Source: an uncultured Methylococcaceae bacterium
GTDB lineage: Bacteria; Pseudomonadota; Gammaproteobacteria; Methylococcales; Methylomonadaceae
Length of the DNA stretch: 64,000 nucleotides
Assembly (NCBI GenBank): GCA_903863905.1
Contig: CAIPDT010000032.1
Coordinates: 27,481-91,480, forward strand
Direction of reading: 5' to 3'
The notes under the pieces were generated by a model, which did no database searches, was not told where the DNA came from, and saw only the letters and a program-made list of their open reading frames with translations. The position numbers and the translations under genes are program-made. This document shows positions 2,932 to 48,747 of this stretch, one piece after another (position 1 is the first letter of the stretch; every line of letters starts with the position of its first letter).

Positions 2932-3082
2932 AATGATATCCTTTTTGATTAACTAACGAAAACGATACTAACGCTTGAGTATGGCCGCCATTAGTCATTA
3001 CGTCAAGATATTATGAATATTGAGCACTTCAAACCGCGCCTGACAGAAAATAAGATGCGCCATTCACAGCATCTCCTTATGT

Positions 3083-3545
3083 ATCGAACGTCCTAACCTT
3101 TATTCAGCTTTACAAAGATGCACATCGAACGTCCTAACCTTTATTCAGCTTTACAAAGATGCACTCGGCTTTACAAAGATGCACTCGGCTTCGCAAAGTT
3201 GGACAGGCGCTATAACAACCTGCACTCGTGCTGTGCAACAATGCAAAATCCGCAATAAAAATTTTAAACCGCGTGTAAAAGTTTACACAGCCGAGGTACA
3301 GGCCTGCACTCCTCGAATACAAACTTGCATCATTGAATTAAAGTCTGAAATCATCTTTTTCATCAATAAAAAGCCTCGATAAAAAATTTTATACCGCGAG
3401 TGCAACTTTGCACAGCCGAGGTACAGACCTGCACACCACCAGTACGACTTTGCATAACCGAAGTGCAACTTATAATTCATCGAGTAAAACTTTGTATAAC
3501 CGAAGTGCAGCTTATAATTCATCGAGCAAAACTTGGAACGCCGAG
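3083..3545. repeat. Intergenic degenerate tandem-repeat tract with about 20/21-nt periodicity
   Basis: Exact 41-nt duplication (3083-3123, 3124-3164), exact 20-nt duplication (3149-3188), degenerate 21-nt units at 3191-3330 and 3384-3545, and a near-exact 42-nt duplication (3447-3488, 3489-3530). Confidence 0.85.
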
Positions 3546-3785
3546 AAAACATTTGTACTGCTCAAATAAAACGTTTAACAGCCGACATATCGATCGACAC
3601 TTAACCAATTTCGCTAAATAAACATGATTAATAGCTCCTACAGAAAATCTAGATAGGTTTATTAACTTAAAAAGGACTACAATCCCTTTAATCCACTTAA
3701 CAGCCAGAATCTTCTCCTTAAGAACTTTAACCAACTGACTATTAAGCGTTCAATCCATTGATTACTCTTCCCTTAAGGAATCATC

Positions 3786-35645: not shown

Positions 35646-38369
35646 TTAGACTTCAAGTTTACCGTGACAATGTTTATATTTCTTTCCAGAACCACACGTA
35701 CAAAGCTCGTTACGACCTATTTTGTCACCCTGACGTACAAAAGGTTGTTCTACGTTAATACCCTCTTCAGCATTAACCGGAACGGGCGCTTCAAACTCTT
35801 CCAAAGCCGGTGCTTCAGCATGTTCAAAATGCATTTCTCTCGGCGCTTGCATTTGCTCATCAATCGCTTGCACATCTTCTTCTTGACGCACTTGAACTTT
35901 AAACAAAATACCAATCACTTCATATTTGATATGATCTAATAAGCTAGTAAACATTTCAAACGCTTCACGCTTGTATTCTTGCTTAGGATCTTTTTGTGCA
36001 TAGCCTCTAAAATGAATGCCTTGACGCAAATAATCCATCGCAGCCAAATGCTCTTTCCAGCTAGTATCAAGCACTTGCAACATGACTGATTTTTCAAAGT
36101 GCTGCAAGACGTCTTTGGTAATATGCGTTTCTTTTTCTTTGTTATTTTGTTCTAAAATATCAATAATGCGGACACGCAATGAAGACTCTTGAAGACTATG
36201 ATCTTCATCCAGCATTTTTTGCACTGGAATTTGAACATTAAACTCTTGATGTAAATGCTCTTCTAACCCTTCTATATCCCACTGCTCAGCCATTGTTTTA
36301 GCAGGAATATACTGAGTAATCACATCATTAACCACATCCGCACGAATCGCCGAAATAATATCAGAAATGTCTTTAGCAGCCATTAACTCATTTCGTTGAG
36401 TGTAAACCACTTTACGTTGATCATTAGCGACATCGTCATACGCCAAAATTTCTTTACGAATGTCAAAGTTTCTACCTTCAACCTTACGCTGTGCGTTTTC
36501 AATCGATCGAGTCACCCAAGGATGTTCGATGGCTTCACCATCACCCATACCTAACTTTTTCATCAACGCTGCAACACGGTCTGACGCAAAGATACGCATC
36601 AAATCATCTTGTAAAGACAAATAAAATCGCGTTGATCCGGGATCACCTTGACGGCCTGAACGACCTCTTAATTGGTTATCAATTCGGCGTGATTCATGAC
36701 GTTCAGAACCAATGACATGCAGACCACCGCTTGCAAGCACTTGATTATGTCTGTCTAACCAAACCGCACGCACTTGATCTTTTTGAGCTTGAGAAGCGTC
36801 TTCACCTAATAACTTTAATTCAGCTTCTAAGTTACCCCCTAAAACGATATCAGTGCCTCGACCGGCCATATTAGTCGCAATAGTAACGGCACCCGGCATA
36901 CCGGCTTGCTCAATAATATGCGCTTCACGCTCATGCTGTTTTGCATTAAGCACTTCATGCTTAATACCTTGCTTGATTAATAAGTTAGATAAGCGTTCAG
37001 AGTTTTCAATGGAGGTAGTACCGACTAAAACCGGTTGTCCACGACTCACACAATCTTTAATATCGGTAGCAACGGCAATATATTTTTCATCGGTGGTTAG
37101 ATAAACTAAATCACCCATATCCTTACGGATCAAAGGACGGTGTGTCGGTACAACCACCACTTCAAGACCGTAAATTTTATTTAACTCAAAGGCTTCTGTA
37201 TCTGCGGTTCCGGTCATACCCGATAATTTATCGTACAAGCGGAAATAATTTTGGAAAGTAATAGATGCTAAGGTCTGATTTTCGCTATTGATAGCGACGC
37301 CTTCTTTAGCTTCAATGGCTTGATGCAAGCCTTCTGACCAACGACGACCCGGCATAATACGACCGGTAAACTCATCAACAATGATGACTTCATTATCAGC
37401 CACAATATAGTCCACATCTTTTTTAAATAAGACGTGTCCACGTAAAGAGGCGTTCAGATAATGCATCAAACGAATATTCGAAGCATCATAAAGACTGGTG
37501 CCTTCAGACATTAAACCATGCTCAACCATTAAACGTTCAATACGCTCATGACCCGCTTCGGTTAAATAGACCTGACGAATTTTCTCATCAACCGTGTAAT
37601 CACCCGGCTTATCATCGCTATCTTGGCGCGTTAAATGAGGAATAACCGCATTCGCTTTAATATAAATCTCAGTACTTTCTTCAGTAGGACCTGAAATAAT
37701 TAAAGGCGTTCTAGCCTCATCAATCAAAATAGAATCGACTTCATCAACAATCGCGAAGCTTAAATCGCGCTGAACTTTTTGCTCCAAGCTAAAAGCCATG
37801 TTATCACGAAGATAATCAAAACCAAATTCGTTGTTAGTACCGTAAGTAATGTCAGCAGTATAAGCATCACGTCTTGCCGCCTGCTCCATTTGGCTCACAA
37901 TAACGCCCGTTGTTAACCCTAAAAAGCTATACAAACGCCCCATCCATTCAGAGTCACGCTTTGCTAAATAATCGTTAACAGTAACAACATGAACACCACG
38001 ACCCGGTAAGGCGTTTAAATAAGCCGCCAAGGTTGCCATTAAAGTTTTACCTTCACCGGTCTTCATTTCGGCAATTTTGCCGTCATGAAGCATCATGCCG
38101 CCAATCAACTGCACATCAAAATGTCGCATTCGAAAAACTCTAGAAGACGCTTCTCTGACCGCTGCAAAGGCTTCTGGAATTAAGTTATCCAGTTTTTCAC
38201 CTTGCTCTAAACGATCTCGAAACTCTTGAGTTTTTGCTCTTAGTGCCTCATCAGATAATGTTTCGTATTCAGAAGCCAAAGCATTGATCTTTTTGACCAA
38301 CTTCTTTTTCTTCTTTACCAGCCTGTCGTTACGGCTCCCTACAACAAATTTAACTACCTTACCCAGCAT
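35646..38369 (-). CDS. secA: Preprotein translocase ATPase SecA
   Basis: [32 protein letters not shown]-terminal [13 protein letters not shown] zinc motif. Confidence 0.99.
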
Positions 38370-42774: not shown

Positions 42775-42889
42775 ACATTTCCAAGCATTATTTCAAAAAT
42801 ATTCACGATTAACCTGGCTTTTGACTGACTCGAATACCTTGTTAATCGTTGCTTATCCTAGAATAATTCACCCTATTGATCTAACACTT

Positions 42890-43648
42890 ATGACTCAAAA
42901 AAACATCAAAATAGTAGCATTGACCTTTGCACTGTTAAACGCACTAGGCCTTGCGCCACAAACACATGCCGCAGCCGCTCCCGTAGTACAAGATGATTTA
43001 GTGCAAGATGCGGGTTCTTGGGCACAAGTTGCTGCCGAAGGAAGTTTAAAATCAGTGGATCCTAAATTAGAAAAGGTCCGTGTCTGGCTGGAAGGTCAAT
43101 CACGTTGGGATCATAACTGGGATCATTGGTATCAAGGCATGGCGCGTGCCGCGGTAGGTTATGCGCTAACTGACCGTGCGACCATTTGGGCGGGTTACAC
43201 GTATTTACCTACTCAACAAATCAGTGCTTCAGGCGTGGTCGCGCCCTATAAAGCCCAACAAGATATTTGGCCTGGTTTCCGCTATGTATTACCGACCTCA
43301 TTAGGCACAGTGACCTTTAGAACTATTATTGAAAGTAACTTTATCCCGTATAACAATAATGAAGTTAGGGTCCGCCCTCGTCAAATGGTGCGTTTCATGC
43401 ACCCCTTAGATCTTGAGCCTCGTTTAAGTTTAATCAGTTGGGATGAAGCTTTTGTAAGAGTGAACTCGACGCCTACCGGTGGACAAGCTGGGTTTGATCA
43501 AAATCGTTTCTTTGCCGGGCTCGGTTGGTCCTTTAATAAAAACTTCCGTGCTGAAGGTGGGTATCTTAATCAATATTTAGCCCGTATTAATACCACACCA
43601 GATACCATGCATCACTTAATCATGGGGTCTTTATTTATCAATTGGTAA
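42890..43648 (+). CDS. DUF2490 family outer-membrane beta-barrel protein
   Basis: Signal peptide, alternating beta-strand pattern, WDEAFV, GFDQNRFFAGLG, EGGYLNQY, C-terminal aromatic residue (FINW). ATG 42890 preferred. Confidence 0.85.
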   Translation: MTQKNIKIVALTFALLNALGLAPQTHAAAAPVVQDDLVQDAGSWAQVAAEGSLKSVDPKLEKVRVWLEGQSRWDHNWDHWYQGMARAAVGYALTDRATIWAGYTYLPTQQISASGVVAPYKAQQDIWPGFRYVLPTSLGTVTFRTIIESNFIPYNNNEVRVRPRQMVRFMHPLDLEPRLSLISWDEAFVRVNSTPTGGQAGFDQNRFFAGLGWSFNKNFRAEGGYLNQYLARINTTPDTMHHLIMGSLFINW

Positions 43649-43868
43649 GTCAATCACGTTGTCGCTATTGATCGGCTTATACTTTACTCAGTCCGTGTTT
43701 TCAGTGCCTGCTTATGCAAAGATAGGGTAAAAAAGCGAACAAACTAACAGTTTACTCGCGTTGAAGACATAGAACGTAACAAAGGAAGAAATTGACACGC
43801 TATACAACGGATTGACAAAAACACGTAAAACATTGATTAATATTATAAAATTAGCCTTTTAAAGCAGA

Positions 43869-44211
43869 GTACGCCCTACTCTCAACAGCATAAGTCCTAC
43901 TCTGTTGGGAGTAAGGCCTACTCTACATAGAACAGACCGTACTCCTAACAGCATAAGCCCTGCTCTGTTGGGAACAGGGCCTACTCTACACAGAACAAGC
44001 CTTACTCCCAACAGCACAAGCCCTACTCTATTGGGAACAGGGCCTACTCTACACAGAACAAGCCTTACTCCCAACAGCACAAGCCCTACTCTGTTGGGAA
44101 CAGGCCCTACTCTACACAGAACAAGCCTTACTCCCAACAGCATAAGCCTTACTCTGTTGGGAACAGGCCCTACTCCAGACAGAACAGGCCTTACTCCCGT
44201 GAAAACAGGAG
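43869..44211. repeat. 16 x 21-nt tandem array organised as a 63-nt (A-B-C) higher-order repeat
   Basis: YTACTC core (variants GTACTC and CTGCTC once each) at 43876+21k for k=0..15. The 8-nt variable segments cycle CCAACAGC / TGTTGGGA / TACACAGA. Confidence 0.95.
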
Positions 44212-44465
44212 CTATAGTGATTTTCAAAGGCGTTTTACGCCATAAAACACCTAAAATAGCCCCTCTACCTTAGATTTTATAACAGACTTCCGAAGTTAAC
44301 TTTAGCCACTCGCGTCCTATACCTTAATAACTAAATTATACAGCGGTGAAGACACTTGATACCGTTCACTCAACTGACGTTAAATTCAAAATTTAACCCG
44401 AATCTAAACAGGATACATAGCGACAATTTTGTTATACTCCGCTCATCACGAACGGAGATTTATTA

Positions 44466-45458
44466 ATGGCGCACGACCACTCACACCACGCACACGATCA
44501 TTCTCAGCACTCGCCTCACGATCACTCTCAACATTCGCATTCTCACCACGACCATTCGCACCATGCTCATGGCCATCATCACGTAACGCCCTCTAAAATC
44601 GGTCGTACCTTTGCGATTGCGGTGTTTTTAAATCTTATCTACGTGGGCGTGGAATTAGGTTACGGCTTTATCACCCATTCAACCGCACTGATCGCCGATG
44701 CCGGCCACAATGTCTCTGATGTACTGGGCTTAATCTTATCGTGGACGGCCATTGTTTTAGCCCGTAAGAAACCAAATGAACGCTACACTTATGGCTTGCG
44801 TAGCACCTCTATCTTAGCCGCACTGATTAACGCTATGTTATTACTAATCGCCTGTGGCGCGATTGCGTGGGAAGCCATCCATCGCTTAAGCTCACCGCCT
44901 GAAGTCGCTGGACTCACTATTTCAGCCGTCGCCGGGATAGGCATTGTTGTGAACGGCCTCTCCGCTTTATTATTGATGAAAGGCAGTCAACACGACGTCA
45001 ATATACGCAGTGCTTACTTGCACATGGCGGCTGATGCCGCCGTTTCACTTTCGGTGGTTATCGCAGGTCTAGCGATGCTATATGGCCAGTGGTATTGGTT
45101 AGATCCTGCGATGAGCTTAGTGATTGTGGTGGTGATTGTGTTAGGAACGGGGAGTTTATTACTCGAAGCGATAAAATTAGCCTTAAGTGCCGTGCCTAAA
45201 CATATCGACACAACTGCTATTAACCACTATTTGAACCACTTAGTCGGTGTTAAAGAAATACATGACTTACATATTTGGGGCTTAAGCACCACCGAAAATG
45301 CTTTAACCGTCCACTTAGTGATGCCTGAAGGTTTTCCTGGCGACGCCTTTCTTGATAAGATCGTGTTAACCCTTAAAGAACACTACAACATTCATCACAG
45401 CACGCTACAAGTTGAATTAGGCCAGACTGAGCACCATTGCGCACTGGTGAGTCATTAA
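44466..45458 (+). CDS. Cation diffusion facilitator (CzcD/ZitB-like zinc exporter) with a His-rich N-terminus
   Basis: 20 His in residues 3-39. Site-A motifs HNVSD and HMAAD. HDLHIW. Confidence 0.94.
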   Translation: MAHDHSHHAHDHSQHSPHDHSQHSHSHHDHSHHAHGHHHVTPSKIGRTFAIAVFLNLIYVGVELGYGFITHSTALIADAGHNVSDVLGLILSWTAIVLARKKPNERYTYGLRSTSILAALINAMLLLIACGAIAWEAIHRLSSPPEVAGLTISAVAGIGIVVNGLSALLLMKGSQHDVNIRSAYLHMAADAAVSLSVVIAGLAMLYGQWYWLDPAMSLVIVVVIVLGTGSLLLEAIKLALSAVPKHIDTTAINHYLNHLVGVKEIHDLHIWGLSTTENALTVHLVMPEGFPGDAFLDKIVLTLKEHYNIHHSTLQVELGQTEHHCALVSH

Positions 45459-45979
45459 ACAATCAATTTAAAGTATTCGCTTTCTGCCACGATATCTTGA
45501 TTATCTTCAACACGATCTAAATACACCTTACCTTCGAGGTGATCATATTCGTGTTGAAATATTCTGGCCACAAAACTGTCGAATTGCTGTTGCACTGCGT
45601 GGCCCTCAATATTGGTATACGTCACTTCAATGGCGGTATAACGAGGCACTAATGCACGAATACCGGGAATACTTAGACACCCCTCCCAGCCTTTTTCTTT
45701 CTCCTCCGACAAGGCCACAAAGCGGGGATTAATCATCACCGTCGGCTCCATTAAGGGCGCCTGTGGATAGCGAGGAGACGGCCTTGAAGCCACAATGACT
45801 ATTTGCTTAGAGATACCAATCTGAGGTGCGGCCAATCCCACGCCTTGCGTACTGGCTAAGGCCGCTTGCATCGCTTTAATCTCTGTTTGAGTTTCAATAC
45901 CACCCACTTCCGTTACCGGCGTGGCCACAACACGTAACACCGGATTGCCTAATTGCACAATTTCAACGGCACTCATCAC
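45455..45979 (-). CDS. def: Peptide deformylase
   Basis: GVGLAAPQIG, EGCLSI, QHEYDHLEG. Confidence 0.96.
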   Translation of the reverse strand: MMSAVEIVQLGNPVLRVVATPVTEVGGIETQTEIKAMQAALASTQGVGLAAPQIGISKQIVIVASRPSPRYPQAPLMEPTVMINPRFVALSEEKEKGWEGCLSIPGIRALVPRYTAIEVTYTNIEGHAVQQQFDSFVARIFQHEYDHLEGKVYLDRVEDNQDIVAESEYFKLIV

Positions 45980-48747
45980 TAGGAGGCCAATGATTCATTC
46001 AAAATAGCCGATTGAGCTTGGACCGGTTCTTCATCACTTGTGTTTAATAATTGTTTATAACTGCCATCGGATTGCAACAACCACGCTTGTGTATTATCTT
46101 TTAAATATAAATCCAGATCATGCAGAATACGGGTATATAAACGCTTACTCTCAATGGGGAAGCAAATCTCCACCCGTCTAAACATATTGCGGTTCATTAA
46201 ATCAGCACTAGACGCATACACTTCAACATTACCGTCATTCGCAAAGGCATAAATTCGCGCATGTTCCAAAAAGCGCCCAATAATCGCCCGCACCTCAATG
46301 TTTTCAGAGACCCCTGGAATACCCGGTCTTAAGCAACAAATCCCTCGCACAATTAACTTAACCTCAACGCCCGCTTGTGAAGCCCGATACAACGCTTGTA
46401 TCGCTTGCTCTTCAACAATTGCGTTGACTTGAATAATAATCTTAGCCGCCTTACCATTTTTAGCATGAGTAATTTCACGCTCAATTTTTTCTAATAAGCC
46501 TTTATGCAAAGTAAACGGAGATTGTAATAATTTGTTTAACTTAGTGACCTTACCTAAACTGGTTAACTGTGCAAATACCCGGCGCACATCTTCACCCAAT
46601 TCTTTGTTACACGAGAATAAGCCATAATCCGTATACAGTTGCGCTGTTTTAGGATGATAGTTGCCGGTGCCTAAATGCACATAATTACGCAGTTCTTTAC
46701 CTTCTCTACGCAACACTAAGCACATTTTGGCATGCGTTTTATAGCCCACAACCCCATACACAACGTGCACGGCCGCTTCTTGTAATTTAGACGCTAAATC
46801 GATATTTGCCTTTTCATCAAAACGGGCTCTTAACTCAATAACCACGGTCACTTCCTTGCCCGCCCGTGCCGCTCTAATTAAAGCGGCAACGACCGGTGAA
46901 TCCGCACCGGTGCGATACAAGGTTTGTTTTATCGCCAACACTTCAGGAGAGGCGGCCGCTTGTCGTAAAAACTCCACCACCGGTGAGAACGATTCAAAGG
47001 GGTGATGAAGCAAAATATCATGACGCTTAATGGCGGCAAAAAAATCTTTATTACGCGCTAATTGGGGTGAGGTCGTCGGTTTAAAGGACGGAAACTTTAG
47101 ATCAGGTCTATCCACCAAATCATTCACTTCTTGAATTCGATTTAAATTAACCGGGCCATCCACCAGGAATAAACGATCTCGATTCATTTCAAAGCGATCT
47201 AACAAAAAACTAACCGTATCATCAGGACAGGCCGCATCGATTTCTAAACGCACCTCATCCCCATAATTACGCATTGCTAATTCGCCTTGCACCGCCAGTA
47301 ATAAATCATCAATGGCATCATCATCCACAAAGAAGTCACTGTTACGTGTCACTCTAAATTGATAACAGCCTTTAACGGTCATGCCCGTAAACAACTCACT
47401 GACAAAGGCATGAATAATAGACGATAAGAATACAAAATCACTGGGACCGCTATGAGTTTCCTCAACCGGTAACTGAATCACTCGTGGCAAGGTTCGAGGT
47501 GCTTGCAAAACTGCACGTCCGCTGTTACGTCCAAAGGCGTCTTTACCCGTTAACGAAATAATAAAGTTTAAACTTTTATTTAATATGCGCGGAAAAGGAT
47601 GCGCAGAATCTAAACCCACTGGGGTTAAAATCGGTAATAACTCATCATTAAAATAATTTGCCAACCATTTTAGTTGAGCTTCATTCCAGTCAGTACGACG
47701 TATGAATCGAATGTTTTCTTCATTCAGTTTAGGAATTAAAATGTCGTTGAGAACTTGATACTGCTCTTCAACTAATTTATGCGCATGAATAGAAATCTGC
47801 TCCAATTGATCTTTTGCGGTTAAGCCATCAGACCCAATCGCTTTAGGATCAATTCCGGCCATCTCTAAGACACTGGCCACACGTACTTCAAAGAACTCAT
47901 CCAGATTTGAACAAGAAATACATAAATAATTAAGGCGTTCCAGCAAAGGCACAGATTCATTTTTGGCTTGTGCCAAGACCCGTTTATTAAAAGCCAATAA
48001 ACTTAAATCACGATTGATATACAGTTCAGGTTTCTCTAAGTTGATTGCTTCAACAGTTTCTGGGGTATCCATATTGTTCCTTAAATTATCAGGGATAATG
48101 CCACTTATAAACACATGTCGATCACTGATTTGAACGACATGCAAATTTAACTCGGCTTGCGCAAGTTGGGAGATAATTTCTTTCAAGCTAAACGCGGCTA
48201 ACAAGGAATTATAAAAATCTCGTTGTAAAATCTCGGGTTCATCTCCCGCATACTGAGCCACCATTTTTTGGGCTTCTTCAGGACTACCTGGCCGTAATAA
48301 GTCCATAATAAACACCGCCGTACCGGGTTTAGCATAGCTTTTTACCGTCTGCCAAAGCACCTGTGGCTCCGCTAAATGATGCAACAGACTATTGCTATAG
48401 ATGATCTCATAATTAGATTGCGGTAATGTGACATGCGGTAACACAGCCTTAATAAACCGAATTCGGGTCGATAAATTAGTGGGTAAGGCACCTTTCGCAT
48501 ACGCTAACATAGGCTCAGAACCATCAACTGCATGCACAGTTGCCGCAGGAAAAGCATTAGCAAACCGCACGGTAATATCGCCTGGTCCACAGCCCAAATC
48601 TAAGGCGGTGCCGTTAAAGGCTGGTTTGTTTAAATAGAGTTTTAATTGCCGCATAAAATTATCATGTGGCACTTCAAAATTCGCCTCCGCATAGGCTTTA
48701 ACTTGATCAAGTGCCTCCATTAACTCAGGTTCTAAAATTCGATTCAT
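45979..48747 (-). CDS. ppk1: Class I SAM-dependent methyltransferase fused to polyphosphate kinase 1
   Basis: Residues 1 to about 218 carry LDLGCGPG, VDGSEPML, SNSLLHHL. From Met226: YINRDLSLLAFNKRVL, SNLDEFFEVRV, LLHHPFES, ELRARFDE, HLGTGNY, GRFLEH. Confidence 0.95.
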   Translation of the reverse strand: MNRILEPELMEALDQVKAYAEANFEVPHDNFMRQLKLYLNKPAFNGTALDLGCGPGDITVRFANAFPAATVHAVDGSEPMLAYAKGALPTNLSTRIRFIKAVLPHVTLPQSNYEIIYSNSLLHHLAEPQVLWQTVKSYAKPGTAVFIMDLLRPGSPEEAQKMVAQYAGDEPEILQRDFYNSLLAAFSLKEIISQLAQAELNLHVVQISDRHVFISGIIPDNLRNNMDTPETVEAINLEKPELYINRDLSLLAFNKRVLAQAKNESVPLLERLNYLCISCSNLDEFFEVRVASVLEMAGIDPKAIGSDGLTAKDQLEQISIHAHKLVEEQYQVLNDILIPKLNEENIRFIRRTDWNEAQLKWLANYFNDELLPILTPVGLDSAHPFPRILNKSLNFIISLTGKDAFGRNSGRAVLQAPRTLPRVIQLPVEETHSGPSDFVFLSSIIHAFVSELFTGMTVKGCYQFRVTRNSDFFVDDDAIDDLLLAVQGELAMRNYGDEVRLEIDAACPDDTVSFLLDRFEMNRDRLFLVDGPVNLNRIQEVNDLVDRPDLKFPSFKPTTSPQLARNKDFFAAIKRHDILLHHPFESFSPVVEFLRQAAASPEVLAIKQTLYRTGADSPVVAALIRAARAGKEVTVVIELRARFDEKANIDLASKLQEAAVHVVYGVVGYKTHAKMCLVLRREGKELRNYVHLGTGNYHPKTAQLYTDYGLFSCNKELGEDVRRVFAQLTSLGKVTKLNKLLQSPFTLHKGLLEKIEREITHAKNGKAAKIIIQVNAIVEEQAIQALYRASQAGVEVKLIVRGICCLRPGIPGVSENIEVRAIIGRFLEHARIYAFANDGNVEVYASSADLMNRNMFRRVEICFPIESKRLYTRILHDLDLYLKDNTQAWLLQSDGSYKQLLNTSDEEPVQAQSAILNESLAS

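Follow-up and report, generated by a model that had tools for sequence, protein, structure and literature searches.

The spacer between the DUF2490 gene and the zinc (CDF) exporter gene of an uncultured Methylococcaceae bacterium contains sixteen 21-nt units in exact phase, and a sequence-only reading had proposed that they may form a structured RNA, a phased protein-binding array or a contingency locus. This raises the question what kind of element the array is, how it came into being and whether it matters for the exporter gene downstream. The window, by which we mean the whole stretch of DNA analysed (64,000 nt), was compared with conspecific contigs, with related loci and with metagenome and metatranscriptome data. 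The best explanation, to which we assign a probability of roughly 0.55, is that the array is the internal minisatellite of a species-restricted family of non-coding intergenic elements with the modular structure leader-(21-nt unit)n-tail. Although unusually tidy, the element belongs to a fairly ordinary type of bacterial repeat.

Layout of the array and its variation within the species

The features of the element and of its immediate surroundings are the following.

42821..43648, + strand: DUF2490 gene, upstream of and outside the element (Pfam PF10677, E 5.7e-42)
43716..43868, + strand: leader module (nhmmer leader profile match 43716-43888)
43735..43759, - strand: terminator-like hairpin inside the leader, 11 pairs and then T6
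43869..44204, + strand: minisatellite of 16 x 21 nt, super-units starting at 43869, 43932, 43995, 44058 and 44121
44184-44204, + strand: terminal (16th) A-like unit (21-nt register print)
44205..44309, + strand: tail module (nhmmer tail profile match 44184-44309)
44437-44457: hairpin before the CDF gene, CTCCG...CGGAG
44466..45458, + strand: CDF metal exporter gene with a His-rich N-terminus, downstream of and outside the element (Cation_efflux and ZT_dimer domains)

The array consists of five 63-nt super-units, each made of the units A, B and C, and of the terminal A-like unit. In the 21-nt register counted from 43869, every unit begins with a 13-nt frame (A-Y-A-R-G-S-C-Y-TACTC) and ends with an 8-nt cassette, which reads CCAACAGC in A, TGTTGGGA in B and TACACAGA in C, and the order A-B-C is cycled five times. 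Tandem Repeats Finder reported a period of 63 with 5.2 copies, 90% matches and a score of 505 at 43873-44198, together with a 21-nt sub-period inside the 63-nt array (15.4 copies, 63% matches). The layout described in the sequence-only reading was thus confirmed by this program and by the register print, as was the position between the DUF2490 gene and the exporter gene by the domain matches. The true end of the array is at 44204, the bases up to 44211 being part of the tail, and the strongest deviation within the array is found in units 1-4. The motif GCCYTACTC occurs 11 times in the window, compared with 0.48 expected occurrences, and 11/11 lie within the array.

Since the array was recovered in independent assemblies and in runs of several studies, it is not an assembly artefact. 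The earlier statement that it is not CRISPR was also correct: a CRISPR array needs identical repeats and unique spacers, whereas the variable part here comprises 8 nt with the three recurring states A, B and C. The genes within about 6 kb of the array are LptF/G, SulP, DUF2490, CDF, Pdf and PPK, with no cas gene among these.

The closest named relatives of the flanking proteins are Methylobacter and Methylococcales MAG proteins, and every contig and run containing the locus is of lake or freshwater metagenome origin. In nine conspecific copies the array is found at the same place, and the assemblies differ by whole 63-nt blocks, with three super-units in L007, four in L001 and five, to be read as five or more, in the window, L002, L004 and L133; three further conspecific scaffolds are broken by N runs inside the array. 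The variation in copy number that had been suspected was therefore found (3, 4 or 5 and more super-units), and head-to-tail repeats of 10-100 nt whose copy number is polymorphic within a species are what defines a bacterial minisatellite or VNTR, with the reservation that part of the differences between these short-read assemblies could be collapse. The 68 nt before the array (43800-43868) contain 11 variable sites among seven conspecific sequences (about 16%); in the 4.9 and 4.8 kb on either side, variable sites make up about 1% and 0.3%. They form three or four mosaic haplotypes among conspecifics, and both TTGACA hexamers of the window are lost in one conspecific haplotype.

Tandem repeats were observed also elsewhere in the window. 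Short tandem repeats of 9 and 24 nt (44470-44538) code for the His-rich N-terminus of the CDF protein itself (HSHH/HDHS repeats). Another long intergenic spacer of about 850 nt (2932-3785), located upstream of an 804-aa ORF, contains nested unrelated tandem repeats: two copies of a 41-nt unit overlap 2.5 copies of a 20-nt unit (3083-3198), 2.1 copies of a 42-nt unit whose sub-period is 21 nt occupy 3447-3534, and a further repeat, about 125 nt long, lies near 3270 and 3395. A further observation concerns a 922-aa product encoded on the - strand at 45979-48747, an unusual fusion in which a SAM-methyltransferase domain at the N-terminus is joined to a complete polyphosphate kinase 1 (PP_kinase_N, PP_kinase, PP_kinase_C).

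Paralogous elements and the origin of the hairpin

A scan of 241 million metagenome records for two consecutive frames led to four contigs, all from one sample. One of them represents the window locus, and the similarity of the remaining three to the window is confined to the array and the near flanks. The search for homologous arrays that had been recommended thus revealed two paralogous arrays, which have the same 13-nt frame and are organised as a 42-nt dimer or as a 21-nt monomer. The dimer array (L135) is located between DUF1348 and yceD-rpmF, and in it C-type units (TACACAGA) alternate with A-type units (CCAACAGA). The other is a plain 21-nt A-type monomer array beside a BrnT/BrnA pair, of which L134 and L136 are the left and right sides; a contig of run X1 joins the L134 array to the L136 tail, and the other neighbour of this array is an unknown ORF.

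The read depths of L135 and the window were compared in four DNA runs from three studies and match in each of them (about 11-16 vs 11-15 in X1, about 6-13 vs 9-13 in X2, about 7.6-9 vs 7.2-9.3 in X5, and about 10-12 vs 9-11 in X7), while the depth of L134 agrees with that of the window in two of the runs, X1 and X7, coverage of L134 being patchy in X2 and X5. The three loci therefore most likely belong to one genome population of a Methylobacter-like lake bacterium. The region L134 1-2350, where the third array adjoins the BrnT/BrnA toxin-antitoxin pair, is patchy or about 2% diverged between runs and looks like strain-variable accessory DNA.

The nhmmer profiles of leader and tail were each built from three sequences including the window's own, so that the window match is partly circular; they found no other copy of the element in the 64-kb window. 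The window leader is weakly conserved (50-57% identity to the paralogue leaders) and has in common with them the block ATTGATTAAT (43832-43841), which is followed by 27 nt and then by the array. The tail, with 60-64% identity to the paralogue tails, has in common with them GAAAACAGGA, GTTTTAC (44232-44238) and, after 12 nt, CTAAAATAG (44251-44259). The terminator-like hairpin at 43735-43759 has no counterpart at the equivalent place in L134 or L135. Considering all three loci, leaders are 50-73% and tails 60-68% identical, whereas the units differ by 0-3 in 21 nt, and a window C unit is identical to an L135 unit in 21/21 positions. Across 48 units, frame positions 1, 3, 7, 9 and 11-13 never vary, and positions 5 and 10 hardly do. 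The loci also agree in the variant (A/G)(C/T)ACGCCCTACTC of the first unit and in the junction ...GAAAACAGGA between array and tail. These common edge units, together with the frame and the leader and tail blocks, show that whole elements were copied to new sites and that the arrays do not have three independent origins. The higher-order period differs per locus, being 21, 42 or 63 nt. All three loci lie between genes and contain no supported ORF, three is a low number of copies, and all five flanking genes are co-oriented with the + strand of the array, which hints at an orientation constraint.

At the boundaries of similarity, GTGCCAAAG is present on both sides of L135 in 9/9 positions (about 1050 and 1615, reverse-complement orientation), and the boundaries of L134/L136 (L134 about 2206; L136 tail end) read CCGCCAAAG and CCGTCAAAA (7/9); the corresponding motifs of the window, GCAAAG and CCGAAG, are weak. 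These motifs resemble each other across loci and may represent a target site or a duplication, although their scores as direct motifs are not statistically above chance. The empty site in the relative L130 reads TGCCAAGCA. Terminal inverted repeats were not detected at the three loci, where the leader compared with the reverse-complemented tail scores 15-18 (shuffled mean 16, maximum 24-27), so that leader and tail have no complementarity above chance. A separate polymorphism adjoins the leader of the yceD locus, where a 181-nt insertion/deletion (L135 2453-2633, native coordinates) is bounded by TTAA and carries a C6...G6 inverted repeat; its short form is present in L143 and as a joint in the runs X1, X2 and X7.

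No matches to the element were obtained in viral, plasmid and phage collections, and a genome-collection scan for three CYTACTC cores at 21-nt spacing gave at least 120 loci, of which none among those listed is the window array; the matches listed are unrelated 7- and 21-nt repeats, mostly cyanobacterial. The relatives L130/L131 (CDF protein 74% identical) have the same order LptFG-SulP-DUF2490-CDF with a spacer of only 82 nt and no array, and in L144-L146 (CDF 72% identity) the spacer measures 385 nt and contains no tandem repeat. In the relatives whose yceD is 88% or 81% identical, the 10 kb around the locus are likewise free of an array. As far as these alignable sequences indicate, the element is absent from close relatives at both comparable loci (DUF2490-CDF and yceD), and its roughly 600 nt would be a lineage-specific addition upstream of the CDF gene.

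The sequence-only reading had regarded a hairpin formed by the cassettes A and B as built into every 63-mer. Its arms are located as follows.

43880-88/43902-10: A/B arms of copy 1
43943-51/43965-73: A/B arms of copy 2
44006-14/44028-36: A/B arms of copy 3
44069..44099, no strand assigned: A/B hairpin of copy 4 as an example, arms 44069-44077 TCCCAACAG and 44091-44099 CTGTTGGGA, 13-nt loop
44132-40/44154-62: A/B arms of copy 5

The complementarity of 9 nt is indeed present in each 63-mer; the stem is perfect in copies 4 and 5, copies 1 and 2 each contain a single G.U, and copy 3 is interrupted by an A.C mismatch. The predicted fold of the 63-mer has a 9-bp stem, a 13-nt loop and a 4-bp outer helix, with a predicted energy for copy 4 of -17.9 kcal/mol (RNA) or -10.5 (DNA). 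The stem of copy 1 is predicted to extend to about 15 pairs, in rough agreement with the earlier estimate of about 16 bp, and copy 3 folds no better than shuffled sequences. The stem as such is therefore real, but its interpretation as a designed feature was not supported, since the B cassette is absent from both paralogous arrays and compensation was lacking: among conspecific 63-mers the stem changes are one-sided only, two of them leaving a G.U pair on the + strand but not on the - strand and one doing so on the - strand but not on the + strand; no compensatory A/B change was found. Missing covariation between A and B had itself been named as a result that would speak against the proposal, and for the hairpin this result was obtained. 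A fair test for the folding of a tandem array is to shuffle the unit and then to repeat it; under this unit-shuffle null the trimer array stands out owing to the inversion described below, while the monomer array has no significant structure on either strand (p = 0.2 and 0.115). In a separate comparison with shuffled sequences, the + strand of the monomer array did not stand out (z = -0.16). Whole-array dinucleotide-shuffle z-scores (-7.7, -13.8) were discarded as structure evidence because such shuffling destroys the repeat.

The B unit corresponds exactly to an A-type unit whose last 10 nt are reverse-complemented in place (TCCCAACAGA -> TCTGTTGGGA). The simplest history that we infer begins with one small inversion of the last 10 nt in a single A-type unit, which would have produced the B unit, probably through template switching across an imperfect palindrome that this unit itself contains; the A-B-C block would then have been amplified by replication slippage or unequal recombination. 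Such an origin of B implies that the 9-bp hairpin would be a by-product of the inversion that arose late, and not a conserved functional design.

Passive element, regulatory RNA, binding platform or gene

According to the explanation that we favour, the element was copied whole to new sites, so that three copies are now found at unrelated intergenic places, each array then gained its own higher-order period, and the element would evolve by slippage, unequal exchange and the one small inversion. It would be carried along, and its transcription, by read-through or from weak internal promoters, would probably be low to moderate. Any effect in cis would be modest at best, for instance protection of RNA 3' ends, pausing, or a locally raised rate of recombination or mutation; the element would not control the CDF gene. 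Several observations are not easily accommodated. Against a neutral element stand the 0-3/21 differences between the units of different loci, compared with the far more diverged leaders and tails; this conservation could result from ectopic gene conversion homogenising the arrays or, equally, from selection on the unit as an RNA or DNA binding module. Against a mobile element stand the lack of terminal inverted repeats and of significant terminal direct repeats, so that no mobilisation mechanism can be named, and the low number of three copies. Against a passive element, the RNA contigs on the array or tail also fit a dedicated RNA gene, and the common orientation of the five flanking genes likewise speaks against the favoured explanation. 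Because the units are far better conserved than the flanks, both a sponge RNA and a protein-binding array were kept as rivals.

The RNA data of the window locus are restricted to a short stretch.

44114..44257, unstranded: metatranscriptome-covered stretch (158-nt contig, depth about 15-16, two small runs)

The other RNA contigs across 20 kb in these two small runs are CDF fragments (depth 3-10) and contigs at 37302-37343 and 45718-45753 only. In a larger metatranscriptome, contigs with at least 97% identity are located on the L135 array with a depth of 5-35, compared with 10-16 for rpmF, and none on the flanks. Considering that these contigs are unstranded, that repeated k-mers inflate depth, that the small runs resemble PCR-duplicate islands and that traces of DNA would preferentially assemble the repeat, the data give a hint that the array region is transcribed; the transcription check proposed earlier thus gave some, though unstranded, RNA signal.

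The rival that survives best, although we consider it unlikely, understands the three loci as paralogous genes for a repeat-built sponge or decoy RNA that titrates an RNA-binding protein or a small RNA. It would resemble CsrB/CsrC or RsmX/Y/Z, with one motif per 21-nt unit and the number of units as its capacity, and would most plausibly be formed by the G/U-rich - strand. Units conserved much beyond their flanks, three paralogues with different unit numbers, RNA contigs on the L135 array at rpmF-like depth next to bare flanks, and an RNA contig on the last unit and tail of the window that is deeper than the CDF gene are all consistent with such an RNA. Moreover, the - strand folds better in all three arrays, has GGGAG in the A-type units and a terminator-like hairpin in the window, and three one-sided transitions at the array-tail junction keep the hairpin there paired on the - strand but would mismatch it on the + strand. 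However, Rfam gave nothing at the gathering threshold and, at E up to 10, only generic hairpin (miRNA) models, not even a sub-threshold match for CsrB or Rsm. GGA on the - strand is present in A-type units, absent from B and most C units, and predicted in stems, not in loops; the monomer structure is not significant (p = 0.12 and 0.2, unit-shuffle null); no promoter or terminator candidate on either strand is conserved between the loci; the leader is hypervariable within the species; and the unstranded contigs that constitute the RNA evidence may be inflated by k-mer multiplicity, PCR duplicates and DNA traces. Slightly more doubtful is the wider claim that the three loci are a new regulatory repeat-RNA family in Methylococcales with the 21-nt unit as protein or sRNA binding module, in which gain and loss of units would tune the capacity and selection would hold the unit while leader and tail drift.

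Less probable again is a phased DNA-binding platform, in which sixteen direct sites two helical turns apart would allow cooperative protein loading on one face of the helix, and which could act in chromosome organisation, silencing or decoy titration in an iteron- or centromere-like manner. This reading is independent of transcription and RNA structure, and it agrees with the exact 21-bp period in all three arrays, with the invariant frame positions, with the better conservation of units than of flanks and with the partly palindromic core GGCC/AGGCCT. Exact phasing is, however, automatic in any tandem repeat, the copy number is free to vary within the species, the element is missing in related species at both comparable loci, no rep, par or regulator gene is present at any of the three loci, and there is no plasmid or phage similarity. 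An iteron origin or plasmid centromere in particular was rejected, since the phasing is as expected but the neighbours are DUF2490/CDF, DUF1348/yceD and BrnTA/unknown ORF, with no plasmid or phage match.

It is very unlikely that the array is a contingency (phase-variation) switch, in which gain or loss of 63-nt blocks would alter the expression of the CDF exporter. In its favour one may cite the varying copy number among conspecific contigs, the position of the array upstream of and co-oriented with the CDF gene and the hypervariable 68 nt before it. An extended -10-like motif, TGTTATACT, is located before the CDF start codon (44430-44438) and is common to all relatives compared at this locus, none of which has the array, which points to a putative promoter region of the exporter's own; this motif and an operator-like hairpin are found within 40 nt of the CDF start. 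The array ends 226 nt upstream of TGTTATACT, so that 63-nt steps leave the geometry of the core promoter unchanged, and one such step corresponds to six helical turns, which keeps the helical phase. A contingency locus has its repeat in the promoter spacer or in a reading frame, whereas this array is remote from the promoter-like motif and has no supported ORF, and the paralogous arrays precede unrelated genes (yceD-rpmF and an unknown ORF). The contingency locus of the sequence-only reading is thus not supported, as the CDF gene keeps a proximal promoter-like motif that is present also in relatives lacking the array. As a separate observation, the palindrome after TGTTATACT differs by species, being CTCCG...CGGAG in the window and GAACTGAAT-C-ATTCAGTTC in L130 (about 2960-3000); this hairpin may be an operator or a 5'-UTR structure evolving by replacement.

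Finally, the array might encode a heptad-repeat protein, composed of TGPTLHR / TSLTPNS / TSPTLLG or of VGPVPNR / VGLVLLG / VRLVLCR. The open frames of 122 codons reported for both strands do exist, at each of the three loci the + frame extends without a shift into the conserved tail, and a gene caller predicted a 78-aa ORF in the tail of L143. As a sign of coding, however, these frames carry little meaning, since they are expected by chance: two or more of the six frames are open in 80% of composition-matched shuffled 63-mers, and in the monomer array 5/6 are open. A search of 5.8 billion proteins gave no homologue of the - strand ORF (43862-44227), and this ORF, used as bait for annotated arrays elsewhere, likewise gave no matches. 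The sole Pfam match, a herpesvirus Thr/Pro-rich region with 27.2 bits against a cut-off of 26.4, is borderline and probably compositional. The variable unit positions (2, 4, 6, 8, 14-18 and 21) have no third-codon-position bias, and of the tail substitutions that separate L135 from L136, 11 affect codon position 3, 6 position 1 and 6 position 2, which is not significant. In L135 the array frame lacks a canonical start codon, the start position of the tail ORF is GTG, ATG or ATT across the three loci, and an in-frame stop precedes the window array by 9 nt. A repeat protein gene should have a start codon, homologues and codon bias; with no such start in L135, no homologue of the - strand ORF and no codon bias, the array is judged non-coding, and this least likely of the readings is, together with the contingency switch, close to excluded.

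Known repeat systems and meaning of the family

The closest known counterpart of the leader-unit-tail family is BrickBuilt of Porphyromonas gingivalis, which consists of a leader, a 23-nt minisatellite and a tail, is intergenic, multi-copy, species-restricted and transcribed, and has IS5-like 12-nt terminal inverted repeats and 19 copies (PMC4596501). Both families have a leader, spacerless head-to-tail units of about 21-23 nt and a tail, are always intergenic without an ORF, occur in several copies per genome with differing unit numbers, and do not extend beyond a single species and its closest relatives; BrickBuilt is transcribed, and the window family probably is as well. The window family differs in lacking terminal inverted repeats, in having three loci with leaders and tails 50-73% identical and periods of 2 and 3 units, and it has no sequence similarity to BrickBuilt. 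Compared with a MITE of the BrickBuilt type, it is multi-copy, intergenic, without transposase and of leader-minisatellite-tail structure, but the terminal inverted repeats are not present. REP/BIME elements, which need alternating palindromes and hundreds of copies, were rejected, as all frames here are direct, only the 10-nt cassette is inverted in B, and there is no further copy in 64 kb.

BOX elements of Streptococcus pneumoniae have the architecture boxA-(boxB)n-boxC. With these the window family has in common two conserved end modules around variable tandem units, the intergenic position, transcription (here probable) with neighbours and the use as VNTR markers (PMC3049150). It differs from BOX, which has >100 copies, a 45-nt boxB and pairing end modules, by its three copies, 21-nt units and lack of leader-tail pairing. 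In the higher-order repeats of alpha satellites, which are eukaryotic and of megabase scale, sets of diverged monomers are amplified as a block. The amplification of a block of 2 or 3 monomers, the more diverged edge units and the homogenisation by unequal exchange are similar here, whereas the window family spans 200-450 nt in a bacterial intergenic spacer and contains one monomer with a 10-nt in-place inversion.

The likeness to CsrB/CsrC and RsmX/Y/Z is limited to several paralogues per genome, about one motif per 20 nt and a variable motif number. Membership in this group was rejected, the window family having no match to a covariance model in Rfam, no GGA in every unit or in loops, and no conserved promoter, upstream activating site or terminator. 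The R6K gamma origin has 7 x 22 bp iterons, and sopC is a plasmid centromere. Direct repeats of about 21-22 bp in exact helical phase are found in these as well as in the window array, which differs in being chromosomal, at three unrelated housekeeping loci, without a Rep/Par gene and without plasmid or phage similarity.

A family of this kind makes the formation of hierarchical minisatellites visible, since what is most likely one genome population holds the same 21-nt unit as monomer, dimer and trimer. One 10-nt inversion would account for the hairpin of the trimer, and the case is a clear warning against reading function into the stem-loops and open frames of repeats. Moreover, the locus is a VNTR strain marker for a widespread Methylobacter-like lake population, at which short-read assemblies break. 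If the conservation of the unit reflects selection, methanotrophs would have in this family a repeat RNA or a protein-binding array of a new kind.
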